64,000 nt of DNA from a virus (Duplodnaviria; Heunggongvirae; Uroviricota; Caudoviricetes). The DNA lies in the IMG/VR virus record IMGVR_UViG_3300009709_000002, positions 232,228 through 296,227 of that record; one strand, 5' to 3'. Positions 47,742-63,661 of this stretch are shown here, piece after piece (position 1 is the stretch's first letter; each line of letters begins with the position of its first letter). The notes beneath the pieces were generated by a model, which was not told the origin of the DNA, did no database searches, and saw only the letters and a list, made by a program, of their open reading frames with translations. The translations under genes were made by a program, and so were the position numbers.

Positions 47742-48329
47742 TTAGAGAGTTGCGAGGTCTTCAAGACCATAGTCAATCAGTTCATTTTGGCAATCGAGAA
47801 TAGACTTGCCGTCATCAAGCATCTCCTGAACAATCTCAAAAGCATCTACGTAGCCTGGAATCTGACCAGGATTGCTAAATTCTACAATCTTCAACTTAGG
47901 CATCTTCATAAGATAAAGCACACCGCACTCTGGTGTCGTGCCATAAATGTGTAGTTCCTCAACTCTGTCAAGCTTCGCGCCTTTAAGAGATTTCAAGGTG
48001 CAGCGCTGAATTGTCAAAACTCGAGTGTTGATTAGATCTTCTGCATTGAGAATGTAGCGCTCCATGGTGACCTTATTGAGCTTCATGTTGCTCCAATCCT
48101 CTACCGTCATTTCAGCAGATGAGAAGTTGGAAAGCTTTTTACCGTCGATCCAGACACCAGCAGCAGATTTCTTGTGAATCTTGCCTTGTTCATCGATGTA
48201 GAATGCCTCATCCAGTCGCAATCCATGATGGCTAGCGTCATAGAACTTGGCATGATTTCTACGCCATTTTGCTGTTGATTGATATGCTGCAGAATGTTCT
48301 TCAGTTTCAAATAGTTCTTGTAATTTCAT
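47742..48329 (-). CDS. LRR-like paralogue family member
   Basis: MKLQELFE leader; LKSLKGA; CGVLYLMKMPKL; DCQNELIDYGLEDLATL. Confidence 0.8.
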   Translation of the reverse strand: MKLQELFETEEHSAAYQSTAKWRRNHAKFYDASHHGLRLDEAFYIDEQGKIHKKSAAGVWIDGKKLSNFSSAEMTVEDWSNMKLNKVTMERYILNAEDLINTRVLTIQRCTLKSLKGAKLDRVEELHIYGTTPECGVLYLMKMPKLKIVEFSNPGQIPGYVDAFEIVQEMLDDGKSILDCQNELIDYGLEDLATL

Positions 48330-48979
48330 AGCTTTGCAAAATCATCTAGGCCAGCATCAATCAGCTCATCTTGGCACTCAATGATGTCCTTATTTTCTAG
48401 GTGGTTATTGAGAATCTTCAGTGCTTTAGCAAATTTGGTGTTGAACGTAACACCTGAGTTAAATGTCGTACCTTTGAAATTTTGTAGCTTCAATAACGGC
48501 AAGACACCAACAACGCATTGGCTAAAGATATCTTCATCTAGATAAATTTCTTTGAGCTTCGGAGCATATCGTTGAATGTTCTTAAATGACTTGATCTGAA
48601 TTGAAAATTCATCTTCAAATACAATGCTTGTGGTTTCTACTGGAAGACATAAAAAGTCAGGAATGATGATGTCTGAGAAGGCAACATCGATGCCGTGATC
48701 ATGTGGCACCTGATCACTGTTAAATTCCCACATATCACCACGCATTGGTGGCACTACTCCTTCAAATGCAATAGTAAAGAGTTTTTCTACTTTAGGATCA
48801 AACCAGACGTGGTGCCCATTTGTCTTGAAGTATTCTTCAACAAACCATTCACGTGAGCTCTTAGTCCAATCCTTGTAATGGTGAACTTCACCATCAGAAA
48901 ACTGAAACCTCAGGTGTTCTTTAGCCCACTTTCTGATTTGCTCAGATGTGGTTTCAGTGAGATATTGCTTGAATTTCAT
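48326..48979 (-). CDS. LRR-like paralogue family member
   Basis: MKFKQYLTE leader; ECQDELIDAGLDDFAKL; late box CATAAATA at 49001-49008. Confidence 0.8.
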   Translation of the reverse strand: MKFKQYLTETTSEQIRKWAKEHLRFQFSDGEVHHYKDWTKSSREWFVEEYFKTNGHHVWFDPKVEKLFTIAFEGVVPPMRGDMWEFNSDQVPHDHGIDVAFSDIIIPDFLCLPVETTSIVFEDEFSIQIKSFKNIQRYAPKLKEIYLDEDIFSQCVVGVLPLLKLQNFKGTTFNSGVTFNTKFAKALKILNNHLENKDIIECQDELIDAGLDDFAKL

Positions 48980-49058
48980 AAGGCACCTTGTTAAAGAGGC
49001 TATTTATGAAAGCAACAAAACGGTCCCGAAGAACCGTTTTGTTTGTGAATGAGGAGGA

Positions 49059-49349
49059 TTACTCCTGCGAGATCGGGTGAATCGTGATGCGGTGGCCCTC
49101 ATCTTCGAGGACGCGCTTCATGTGCAGCGCCATCACGCCGGCCTTCGCCTGATTGAAGACGGCGCCGCGCAACTTGAACTGGAGATCGTTGTGCGGAAAG
49201 TGAATTTCAGTGCTGCAGTTGAATCCCCACTTCTGCTCGATCGGACCACCAATCGGTTTACGAAGTTCGATCGGCAGACGCTCAACGACGGTTTTGAGCA
49301 GCTCCGGGCTGACGCGTTTGTTCGAGTTGATGAGAATGCTCCAAGCCAT
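49059..49349 (-). CDS. Hypothetical protein
   Basis: 96-aa ORF with RBS ggagg; followed by a terminator at about 49017-49040. Confidence 0.55.
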   Translation of the reverse strand: MAWSILINSNKRVSPELLKTVVERLPIELRKPIGGPIEQKWGFNCSTEIHFPHNDLQFKLRGAVFNQAKAGVMALHMKRVLEDEGHRITIHPISQE

Positions 49350-49361
49350 GAATACCTCCGG

Positions 49362-49730
49362 TCAGGTTGATGATTTATCTTTCATTCGTTGATACTCGAG
49401 ATGTTCGATTTGCTCACGCAGTTCGAAATACTCGGCGTTCCACTTGTTGCCAGGATCATTGCGCTTGTGGCCGATACCATTCACGTCACACGTATGCATC
49501 GTGCACATCGGACGAACGTGTGGCGGTGCTATGCAGCCTGTCGGACCCATCATCGGAAGCTTGGGATGCCCCGTCGGTTCGAGCTTGAGGTTCCATTCTT
49601 CCGCGGCTGTTTCGATAGCAGCTTCGCAGTATTCAGGAGAGCAGCACGTTTGCGGCATACGGCAGCTGAGACGACATTCCGGCTCAGTCAAGTCATACAT
49701 CGACTTGTACAGCTTGATCAGTTGTTCCAC
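49362..49730 (-). CDS. Cys-rich protein (YkgJ-like metal-binding)
   Basis: CxxxC...CC...C...GC...RPMC...C. Confidence 0.6.
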   Translation of the reverse strand: MEQLIKLYKSMYDLTEPECRLSCRMPQTCCSPEYCEAAIETAAEEWNLKLEPTGHPKLPMMGPTGCIAPPHVRPMCTMHTCDVNGIGHKRNDPGNKWNAEYFELREQIEHLEYQRMKDKSST

Positions 49731-49745
49731 GTGCTGCTCCTTGAC

Positions 49746-61721: not shown

Positions 61722-61753
61722 GCTATCTCCGTGACTAGCATGTATTTATTTGC

Positions 61754-62359
61754 TTAGAGGTGAGCGAACCGCTCCAAGCCTGCATCGATGAGCGCAGATT
61801 GACACTGGACGATATCACGCCATTCAGGATCCGTCACGGAGTTTGTGATGTAGGTTTTTACAATCATCAGCGAGCGGTACAGCAGGCGGTCCTTCATGTT
61901 GACATTGACATTGATGTTGTTCAACATCGGCATCTTGAACAATTGAAGCAGATTGATGTCCATGCCAGCCGCATTGACTGCGTGGCCAAAATTGATCTCT
62001 TCCACGCAGGTGAGCTTAGCGGCATGCTTGAAGCCACCAACTACAATTTCCATGAAGTCGAGAACCTTGACGTTCGGGATGTGATCACAGCCGAGAATGA
62101 GATAATCTGTGAAACGAGCTCGAGGAACACCATCCCACGCATTTTGATCAACTGGACAGTTGAACCAAGAATCGGTGCCCATTTTTCGCTCGAACGCAAC
62201 GTGATTAAGCTTGAACTTTGACAAGTTGCGCCGATCCTCATTCGAGCGGATTGAGATAACTTCACCAGACTGAAAAGCATTGTCATACGCGGTGCACTTG
62301 TTGTGCTTAAGCCACTCGGTGATCTTCATGTGATCTTCATCAGTTTCGAATTTCATCAC
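61754..62359 (-). CDS. LRR-like paralogue family member (atypical leader)
   Basis: QCQSALIDAGLERFAHL; NLLQLFKMPML. Confidence 0.8.
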   Translation of the reverse strand: MMKFETDEDHMKITEWLKHNKCTAYDNAFQSGEVISIRSNEDRRNLSKFKLNHVAFERKMGTDSWFNCPVDQNAWDGVPRARFTDYLILGCDHIPNVKVLDFMEIVVGGFKHAAKLTCVEEINFGHAVNAAGMDINLLQLFKMPMLNNINVNVNMKDRLLYRSLMIVKTYITNSVTDPEWRDIVQCQSALIDAGLERFAHL

Positions 62360-63012
62360 AGCTCCGCGTAAGAATCAAGACCAGCGTCCATGAGAGCCAT
62401 CTGACAGTCAAACACAGAAGGATTGTCCATTTGCTTGTACACATTCAAGATCTGAAGAGCCTTGACGAGCTCTTCATACTTCCAGTCTTTGTAGAACGTT
62501 TCGAAGACGATGTTCGTGAGCTTCGGAATCTTGAGGATGCTGAGGATGCCGCAAGAAGCTTGCGTATGAAATTTCACCCAGCTGTCTTTGATCGGATTTG
62601 CCGCACCGAGAAAGAACAAAGAGCGGAGGTTTTGGAATTTCTTCCCGAACTTCATCTCTTTGAAGTGAACGTTTTGGAACTTGAGAATCCCAACATCAGG
62701 GATGATCGAGCAATCATCGATAGCACCGCGATTGAACAGCATGGTTACGCGGTTAGGATCATTGAAGATCCAACCTTCACCAATGATCGGTGGGTCGATG
62801 ATGTCGAGGTAGACGAAAATCTTGGGACTTTGAAGAGTAACTACGATGTTGCCGTCAGCATCAACGTAGGCTGCTTTCTTGTTCGAAACAACCATGCCGT
62901 CTTTATCGAGGAACCGAACATTGTCGGTTGACCGAAGCCACTTTGCGGTCGATTCATTTTGAACTGACCGGAAAATCCTGACCATCTCATTGGTAATCGG
63001 TTGGAGCGGCAT
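62356..63012 (-). CDS. LRR-like paralogue family member (no leader, early promoter)
   Basis: CGILSILKIPKL; DCQMALMDAGLDSYAEL. Confidence 0.8.
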   Translation of the reverse strand: MPLQPITNEMVRIFRSVQNESTAKWLRSTDNVRFLDKDGMVVSNKKAAYVDADGNIVVTLQSPKIFVYLDIIDPPIIGEGWIFNDPNRVTMLFNRGAIDDCSIIPDVGILKFQNVHFKEMKFGKKFQNLRSLFFLGAANPIKDSWVKFHTQASCGILSILKIPKLTNIVFETFYKDWKYEELVKALQILNVYKQMDNPSVFDCQMALMDAGLDSYAEL

Positions 63013-63039
63013 GGTGGTGTTCTTAGTTATGATATGTTC

Positions 63040-63068
63040 ATTATATCATACTTCTACACCAATGGAAA
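63040..63068 (-). promoter_or_regulatory. Sigma70-type promoter for the two leaderless paralogues
   Basis: TTTCCA-N17-TATAAT. Confidence 0.65.
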
Positions 63069-63073
63069 CCATG

Positions 63074-63661
63074 TTACAATTTTGCGTACTCTTCTATGTT
63101 GGCGTCCATAAGCTCTGTTTGGCAAGCAACTATGTCATGCTCACCATCTTCAACATGCTTCTTAACAATTTCAAGAGCATCTTCAAGAGGTTGGTCACCT
63201 AAGAAGTTACTAAGATCTAGTCTACGAAGGTTAGGCATCTTTAAAAGACGAAGTAATCCACATTCAAACTTTACCCATGAGCCAATTCCAATGAAATTAA
63301 CTTCCGATAGATTGTCAACACCCTTTAGTGATTTGATAGTTGTGTCGTCAAAATAAAGACTTTTGACATTTGGAATGCTTTCAAATGAAGTAACAGTTTG
63401 ACGACCGGTATTTTTCAAAAATTGAAACGTTGTGATCTTTCCCCACTCATCTGACCTAATTGGTGGATTCCATGTTGTATCACCAGATATAGTTGAGAAG
63501 TAGATGTCTGAAATATCGTCTTGAATTCCATTGTCATAGATGTAATGATATGACTGGACCATTCGAGTGTGATTGATATATGCTTCAACCTCATACTGTC
63601 GAAACCACTCATTCATCTCTTTATTGCTTACAGCTTCTTTCAGGTATTGTTTGAATCTCAT
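63074..63661 (-). CDS. LRR-like paralogue family member
   Basis: MRFKQYLKE; CGLLRLLKMPNLRRLDL; ACQTELMDANIEEYAKL. Confidence 0.82.
   Translation of the reverse strand: MRFKQYLKEAVSNKEMNEWFRQYEVEAYINHTRMVQSYHYIYDNGIQDDISDIYFSTISGDTTWNPPIRSDEWGKITTFQFLKNTGRQTVTSFESIPNVKSLYFDDTTIKSLKGVDNLSEVNFIGIGSWVKFECGLLRLLKMPNLRRLDLSNFLGDQPLEDALEIVKKHVEDGEHDIVACQTELMDANIEEYAKL

Follow-up and report, generated by a model that had tools for sequence, protein, structure and literature searches.

Leucine-rich-repeat paralogues with a T4 capsid-targeting-like leader as candidate head-packaged proteins of a jumbo phage

Introduction

The 64,000-nucleotide stretch analysed here (the window) is taken from a virus record of 360,227 bp that has direct terminal repeats (the genome, G000), of which it covers bases 232,228-296,227, and carries arrays of small paralogous genes, many of which start with the same kind of short peptide. 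An initial annotation had likened this peptide to the capsid-targeting sequence (CTS) of the phage T4 internal proteins (IPs) and had proposed that the family is made late, loaded into the head and delivered into the next cell as an anti-defence cocktail. The question raised by this locus is whether the shared N-terminus is an address for the capsid or whether it has another origin or role. Among the explanations considered, capsid targeting followed by proteolytic cleavage is the best single one and is held with middling confidence; ejection and an anti-defence role are plausible but rather unlikely.

Two relatives were used for comparison: a complete 359,550-bp genome (G001), whose core proteins are 45-58% identical to those of G000, and the soil jumbo phage RsoM2USA, the nearest cultured relative as judged by protease DNA similarity.

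Results and discussion

A 40-member family with a predicted leucine-rich-repeat fold

An iterated hidden Markov model (HMM) of the family recovered 40 paralogues in the genome, of ~190-300 aa and mostly 190-240 aa. The window holds 19 of them, 18 on the minus strand at 47742-64000 and one on the plus strand at 8209-9087, and the others are found at genome positions 296-306.5, 335.8, 346.4-348.3 and 19.5 kb. Compared with the reference member, the paralogues show 21-33% identity, and all of them end in ...CQxELIDAGxEEYAKL. Column conservation is high at residues 1-9, drops for about 10 residues and reaches its maximum over the C-terminal 120 residues. Inside the arrays, the genes are joined by ATGA overlaps.

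The member at 61107..61721 was modelled by AlphaFold2 with the paralogue alignment, giving a predicted local distance difference test score (pLDDT) of 87 and a predicted template modelling score of 0.85. In Foldseek and VIA-align searches, residues ~13-199 of this model match the short leucine-rich-repeat (LRR) domains of U2A', ANP32A/LANP, dynein light chain 1, internalins and SDS22 (Foldseek probability 0.98-0.99, VIA Z 7-7.9), and the Atlas neighbours of the family are LRR_4 clusters. The model thus identifies the family as LRR solenoid-fold proteins. These short LRR domains have the same solenoid fold but no counterpart of the C-terminal tail or of the leader. The tail is predicted as an exposed coil past the last helix. 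At the other end, the structural matches begin only at residues 13-16, residues 1-10 have a mean pLDDT of 59 against 87 overall, and a flexible linker lies at residues 10-12, which places the leader outside the predicted LRR fold.

At the sequence level, the LRR paralogues match no family in Pfam or PHROGs. One of six members scanned against the Pfam LRR models gave a sub-threshold LRR_4 match (20.5 bits, cut-off 27), the remaining five gave none, and a seventh gave a sub-threshold LRR_EndoS match (16.7 bits, cut-off 27.9). Megablast of the array and tblastn of two members against 50,697 phage records returned no match, even at E = 1, and a word-indexed protein search returned just three proteins, two of this phage and one metagenomic homologue. 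When 1.84 billion representative proteins were scanned in full with HMMER, 848 matched at E <= 1e-10, including some generic long LRR proteins; about 120 of the best 150 come from elsewhere than this phage and have the family size and both of its ends. The leader and the C-terminal tail are retained in metagenomic homologues, the leader in about 100 of them, each representing a 50%-identity cluster. The ten homologues that were looked up are all metagenomic and at most annotated as hypothetical. Searching with a degenerate nucleotide pattern of the C-terminal tail also turned up five related viral contigs. In the published literature, no account of jumbo-phage LRR arrays bearing leaders of this kind was found.

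A shared leader resembling the T4 capsid-targeting sequence

The N-termini quoted in the initial annotation (MKFKEFLKE, MKFKQYLTE, MRFKQYLKE and MKLAEILRE) were all found among the open reading frames (ORFs) of the window. Its exact pattern, MK(F/L)x(E/Q/D)(F/I/L)LxE, fits 7 of the 18 minus-strand members at 47742-64000, and a relaxed form of it (R at position 2; I/V at 3; Y/V at 6; F/M/V at 7) fits 19 of the 40 members and 2 of the 491 other genes. When only the end of the peptide is considered, 26/40 members have [LIFVM]xE finishing at residues 8-10, compared with 24/491 other genes (5%), in agreement with the proposal that most paralogues share a short leader. Six members are without it: those at 61754-62356 and 62356-63012 of the window and four at genome positions 303.9-306.5 kb. 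The leucine at leader position 7 is written with all six Leu codons, which points to selection on the peptide rather than on the DNA.

In T4, IPI, IPII, IPIII, Alt and gp24 carry an N-terminal stretch of some 10 residues that closes with (L/I)xE and is cut by gp21, and the family peptide is of the same form (MKTYQEFIAE, with which IPII and IPIII begin, and MKTFKEF... compared with MKFKEFLKE); the family leader is one residue shorter. In order to compare the two peptides by an objective measure, a matrix built from residues 2-9 of the family was scored on the N-termini of 263 T4 ORFs with one skipped residue allowed. IPI ranked 2nd, IPIII 5th, IPII 6th, gp24 11th and Alt 12th, and on this measure the likeness to the T4 CTS drawn in the initial annotation holds at the level of sequence. 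The ungapped matrix, with no skipped residue, did not recover the T4 CTS proteins. The mature parts of T4's internal proteins and those of the LRR family have no sequence homology, and T4 has three small unrelated internal proteins whereas this phage has 40 paralogues of one LRR fold. Diverse cargo bodies behind a conserved CTS are known among the T-even internal proteins (PMC3012670). Of the two systems, that of T4 is the one for which packaging, cleavage and injection have been demonstrated.

Late-type promoters at the array heads

The heptamer ATAAATA occurs 25 times in the window against 5.5 expected, a number reached in 0 of 100 shuffles. Over the genome, 62 of its 108 copies lie at most 60 nt upstream of a gene on the strand of that gene, as compared with 0-8 for unrelated permutations of the heptamer, with box-to-start-codon distances concentrated at 20-32 nt; the same upstream enrichment is seen in G001 (81/133). 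The boxes that had been placed at the array heads were recovered at 49001, 59696 and 61743 on the minus strand, with 21 nt between each of them and the first ATG, and at 8174 on the plus strand. This last box lies 28 nt before the Met codon at 8209, and 8209 rather than 8185 is therefore the likely start of that gene.

The initial annotation had equated the box with the T4 gp55 late promoter. A homologue of the late sigma factor gp55 adjoins the gp46/47 homologues (E 8e-7), and ATAAATA stands mainly before virion genes, so that the reading as a late promoter is well supported by sequence, but the box of this genome is NATAAATA, in which T is rare at the first position (11%), and not the full TATAAATA of T4. 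ATAAATA is found ahead of the genes for the portal, protease, scaffold, sheath, adaptor, baseplate hub and tail fibres, and seven of ten further ATAAATA-bearing genes tested encode tail fibres, a tail protein, a head-tail adaptor, a baseplate hub or a virion structural protein. The genes for DNA polymerase, helicase, clamp loader, UvsX and gp46/47 are without the box. From this distribution, the arrays are probably transcribed late.

Another promoter class, TTTAC(A/T)-N17-TATAAT, has 37 intergenic sites genome-wide upstream of other genes and is probably an early one. Across the arrays, sigma-70-type consensus sites are not enriched (28 against 30 expected). Upstream of the leaderless 62356-63012 gene, an early-type TTTCCA-17-TATAAT stands in place of ATAAATA, and the four leaderless members at 303.9-306.5 kb have no ATAAATA and just an atypical sigma-70-like site 184 nt upstream. 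The contrast fits a split between packaged and non-packaged members, on small numbers.

Two further observations concern the same promoter regions. Three array heads, upstream of G000 298826, 303189 and 303880 (L014:2827-2860, 7190-7225 and 7881-7915, minus strand), share ATAAATACTCC(C)A...TGG(G)AGT, a hairpin that begins within or right after the promoter box; it takes in Shine-Dalgarno bases and therefore may control translation of the first gene. ATAAATA also lies immediately before the tRNA-Thr and tRNA-Met genes at 7947-8128 (plus strand) of the window, and these tRNAs may therefore be co-transcribed with the late genes.

A T4-type head with the expected protease and scaffold

The T4 system combines a gp21-type protease, a scaffold and a late TATAAATA-like promoter used with gp55, and all of these have counterparts in this genome. 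A T4-type head module at genome positions 188-197 kb encodes a portal, a Peptidase_S77 prohead protease, two small proteins, a scaffold, the major capsid protein and a tail sheath, and homologues of T4 gp43, gp41, gp44, gp46, gp47 and UvsX are also present. The protease scores 100 bits against PF03420, over its cut-off, and is 43% identical to T4 gp21 across the core, with the GELNHP and GVSSRG motifs retained. The scaffold, a phrog_237 match, contains 18 [LI]xE sites where 3.4 are expected (T4 gp22 has 16) and six leader-like heptads, one of them near its own N-terminus, both counts being inflated because its composition is Glu/Leu-rich. In the major capsid protein, Y-L-V-E|TAG lies near the site at which T4 gp23 is cut at L-T-E|A, and the capsid protein of G001 has Y-I-T-E|TAA at the same position; in the alignment itself, the partner of the gp23 motif is VLE, another [LI]xE close by.

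The leader on unrelated proteins and in relatives

The best leader scores outside the family belong to four proteins of the genome: a 283-aa protein (12540-13391), a nucleotidyltransferase-like protein, a 94-aa DUF3175 protein and a 127-aa protein. The nucleotidyltransferase-like protein starts with MKFKTFLES (L010:13147-13902, minus strand). The Lys-rich 94-aa protein starts with MKLIDILSE and has its own ATAAATA box (L002:6624-6908, minus strand), making it the most T4-IP-like small protein of the genome. The G001 orthologues of the 283-aa and nucleotidyltransferase-like proteins retain the leader with indels (MKLTFKEFLAE and MKSFKQFFYE), and three RsoM2USA homologues of the 283-aa protein, ORF403-405, have MTFKAFLQE (from an internal Met), MTTFKEYLTE and MKLEDLFE (from an internal Met). 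G001 holds 16 LRR family members. It also contains a 10-kb island at 219.5-229.5 kb (minus strand; L040 and the end of L039) of about 15 co-oriented genes, nearly all with leader-like starts, some of which belong to the LRR family and some of which are unmatched by the family model, with ATAAATA at 223577, 225647 and 230113. Taken at the level of sequence, the leader is portable across unrelated proteins. The published virion analysis of RsoM2USA covers ten gel bands alone, and ORF403-405 are not among them; neither promoters nor propeptides are treated in the PA5oct paper.

T4-like cyanophages and Caulobacter phage Cr30 encode homologues of the nucleotidyltransferase-like protein. The N-terminus of the one in Cr30 reads MRKFSQLLED, while S-CRM01 g125 is without such a start.

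A leader-bearing protein set in the virion of Atu_ph07 and other packaged families

By tblastn, the 283-aa protein matches three sites of Agrobacterium phage Atu_ph07, gp56 being the best. Atu_ph07 gp53-gp63 (L051:485-11593, minus strand) start with M(K/R)W(E/H/D/Q/N)QL(T/N/I)E or a close variant, and gp408 lies at L052:1281-2057 (plus strand). A degenerate form of this leader pattern found ten sites in the 490-kb Atu_ph07 genome, corresponding to gp54-62 and gp408. All 12 proteins (gp53-63 and gp408) are listed in Table S5 of the virion analysis by electrospray ionisation tandem mass spectrometry, with 3-31 unique peptides each (PMC6102473). Their computed masses (87.07, 56.49, 29.65, 30.93, 30.16, 29.20, 31.19, 29.55, 29.96, 29.61, 41.40 and 30.60 kDa for gp53-63 and gp408 in order) agree with the rows of that table within 0.01 kDa. 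All 12 leader-bearing proteins are thus virion-associated in a cultured jumbo phage, which also encodes a gp21 homologue, gp204 (PMC6102473). The word 'paralog' is absent from the main text of that paper (PMC6102473).

The Atu_ph07 set and the LRR family have in common that they are tandem paralogue arrays in a jumbo phage with a T4-type core and that they carry a conserved short N-terminal peptide. The Atu_ph07 leader has 8 residues ending in L-x-E, and its flavour, M-R-W-E-Q-L-T-E, is unlike that of the LRR family. Only the 283-aa protein belongs to the phrog_12810-like/Atu_ph07 family; the LRR paralogues do not.

Large, variable families of head-packaged paralogues, with up to 20 members, are also known as families A and B of SPN3US and as the inner-body proteins of phiKZ; some of them carry conserved propeptides cut by a gp21-like protease, and they are proposed to be ejection proteins (PMC5694885). 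Those propeptides are mostly longer than 100 residues with an AxE or SxE cleavage motif, the phage lineage differs from the present one, and tblastn of the two LRR members against the 50,697 phage records (E to 1) gave no match to SPN3US A/B-type families.

Capsid targeting and the competing explanations

The scheme considered best supposes a 40-member family of small LRR binders, most of which would bear an N-terminal propeptide of 8-10 residues of the form M-(K/R)-hydrophobic-x-(E/Q/D)-hydrophobic-hydrophobic-x-E. Most arrays would be transcribed late from gp55-type ATAAATA promoters, and their genes translationally coupled through the ATGA overlaps. The leader would dock the LRR protein on the prohead scaffolding core in the manner of the T4 CTS, the T4-like S77 protease would then clip it off after the Glu, and the mature protein would stay in the head and exit with the DNA, so that each infection would begin with a pre-made panel of diversified binders against host proteins. 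We infer late timing, docking, cleavage, ejection and targets from what can be read in the sequence, namely the family with its leader and fold, the promoter boxes, the genes for gp55 and the protease, and the occurrence of the leader on other proteins. That the LRR paralogues are packaged in virions is put at an even chance on this sequence evidence. Ejection with an anti-defence role is unlikely, and the 'anti-defence cocktail' of the initial annotation is pure conjecture.

Several observations weigh against capsid targeting. The top rank of the leader matrix in T4 is taken by gp61.1, a 54-aa protein starting with MKTFKEFIKE (L018:18966-19130, minus strand), closer than the known internal proteins, and to our knowledge its packaging has not been reported. 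N-termini of the form MK-hydrophobic-x-E are common in proteins at large. The best-conserved element of the family is the C-terminal tail and not the leader, which could mean another mode of docking, and the family is mildly acidic (median isoelectric point 5.6). As for transcription, the leader-weak array head at G000 348250 carries both promoter types, several arrays of G001 sit 0.5-4.7 kb from the closest ATAAATA, and read-through from earlier transcripts is possible because the arrays share their strand with adjacent Thg1-like, NAD kinase and replication genes. The LRR family HMM run with filters off against Atu_ph07 gp53-70 found no homology (best E 0.08), and the Atu_ph07 table gives neither head location nor cleavage (PMC6102473).

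Some of these observations would be accommodated if the LRR proteins, made late, stayed in the infected cell and bound host or phage proteins in assembly, superinfection exclusion or lysis timing, which is judged improbable, though it is the competitor to be taken most seriously. The conserved N-terminus would then be a short functional or expression-favouring peptide and no loading signal, an equally improbable supposition. Late-type promoters by themselves do not imply packaging, MK followed by an amphipathic stretch is a common start, the near-identical N-terminus of gp61.1 belongs to a gene of the T4 early region, and the acidity of the family is in line with such a role. A cytoplasmic function sits less well with a leader that lies outside the predicted fold and that ends in a protease motif at the frequency given above (26/40 members against 5% of other genes). 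It also leaves aside the occurrence of the leader on unrelated proteins and their orthologues, where indels preserve the FKxFLxE core and not its distance from the Met, and the virion association of the analogous leader-bearing set of Atu_ph07.

The conserved, exposed C-terminal tail raises another explanation, in which the family members would sit on the outside of the virion as accessory proteins, for instance adhesins or adaptors bound to fibres, docked by ...ELIDAGxEEYAKL and forming a swappable host-range panel. Many fibres and tailspikes are encoded in the window and genome under the same promoter, and the Atu_ph07 proteome does not separate internal from external proteins. This explanation nevertheless leaves unexplained an N-terminus that mimics the T4 CTS and ends in a protease motif, no docking partner has been identified, and a receptor-binding role would be unusual for small LRR domains of cytoplasmic type that have no fibre-like parts; the explanation is considered quite unlikely. 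Finally, a by-product of tandem duplication or gene conversion, in which junction DNA is homogenised with no signal function, is suggested by the way in which the C-terminal codons of a gene adjoin and overlap (ATGA) the following leader in a single conserved block, but it is very improbable given that the leader is retained in array-first genes, in singletons (G000 335766 and 19544), in the ~100 metagenomic homologues from 50%-identity clusters and on non-family proteins, and such a junction origin of the shared ends was rejected as largely refuted on the codon evidence, synonymous codons varying freely.

Implications of capsid targeting

If capsid targeting is correct and the leader is a loading signal, about 8% of the genes of this phage (the 40 LRR genes and several others) would encode cargo delivered at the onset of infection. 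The T4 internal-protein idea would be extended from three proteins to a large diversifying library of binders, which would help to explain the retention of such paralogue families in giant phages, and the LRR bodies would be candidate inhibitors of host defence or of takeover targets. A tag of ten residues would also become available for packaging foreign proteins in non-T4 phages.

More broadly, it may tentatively be proposed that the jumbo lineage with a T4-type core, comprising this phage, G001 and RsoM2USA- and Atu_ph07-like phages, loads dozens of proteins into the capsid through a portable address ending in L-x-E. With the same reserve, the cargo could take in both diversifying families (the 40 LRR binders) and enzymes (the nucleotidyltransferase) as an evolvable effector arsenal. 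Its logic, if true, would be like that of bacterial secretion-system effectors and would go far past the three T4 internal proteins.

Features of the window and minor observations

The coordinates of the family members, of their promoters and of the leader-bearing 283-aa protein are collected in Table 1.

Table 1. LRR paralogues, promoter elements and a leader-bearing protein outside the family, in window coordinates
Position	Strand	Feature	Evidence
8174..8180	+	ATAAATA, 28 nt before likely start 8209	
8209..9087	+	Longer family member, ~292 aa from MRFKQLYEA, same C-terminal module	ORF, HMM
12540..13391	-	Non-family 283-aa protein with leader MKLRDLLEAS, phrog_12810 match	
47742..48329	-	LRR paralogue, last of two-gene array, MKLQELFE	HMM E 1e-45, ORF
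48326..48979	-	LRR paralogue, first of two-gene array, MKFKQYLTE	ORF, HMM, leader motif
49001..49007	-	ATAAATA late-type core, 21 nt before ATG at 48979	
53573..54163	-	LRR paralogue, last of ten-gene array, MKIKQIFEE	ORF, HMM
54160..54792	-	LRR paralogue, MKFKDFLKE, ATGA overlap with neighbour	ORF, HMM
54789..55379	-	LRR paralogue, likely start an internal ATG (MKLKDLVE)	ORF, HMM
55376..56014	-	LRR paralogue, MKFKEFLKE	ORF, HMM
56011..56586	-	LRR paralogue, likely start an internal ATG (MKFKTFLE)	ORF, HMM
56094..56100	-	ATAAATA within array, 80 nt before ATG at 56014; possible internal promoter	
56583..57215	-	LRR paralogue, MKLVEIMSTE	ORF, HMM
57212..57808	-	LRR paralogue, MKFKQFLQE	ORF, HMM
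57805..58419	-	LRR paralogue, MKLVEITVD, weak leader	ORF, HMM
58416..59057	-	LRR paralogue, MKLAEILRE	ORF, HMM
59054..59674	-	LRR paralogue, first of ten-gene array, MKLVELLTE	ORF, HMM
59696..59702	-	ATAAATA late-type core, 21 nt before ATG at 59674	
60496..61110	-	LRR paralogue, MKFKEFLNE	ORF, HMM
61107..61721	-	LRR paralogue, MKFKEFLKE, modelled member; predicted LRR fold at ~13-199	AlphaFold2, fold searches
61743..61749	-	ATAAATA late-type core, 21 nt before ATG at 61721	
61754..62356	-	LRR paralogue, degenerate leader MKFETDEDH	ORF, HMM
62356..63012	-	LRR paralogue without leader, MPLQPITNEM	ORF, HMM
63040..63068	-	Early-type promoter TTTCCA-17-TATAAT (with TG), 27 nt before leaderless gene	
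63074..63661	-	LRR paralogue, MRFKQYLKE, top HMM score in family	ORF, HMM
63658..64000	-	3' part of LRR paralogue (full gene G000 295885-296484, MRFKQYLKE); array runs past window	

Between two of the LRR arrays, an early-type promoter, TTTACA-17-TATAAT, lies antisense to them at 59714-59742 (plus strand). It is followed by about 460 nt of GC-rich DNA (59748-60206) without a convincing ORF, then by an ORF of 99 aa (60207-60506). The GC-rich spacer has no Rfam match and gives a weak folding signal (z-score -1.9). The window also encodes, at 45205-45279 (minus strand), a tRNA with a CTA anticodon, labelled tRNA-Pyl by ARAGORN, which would read amber codons.

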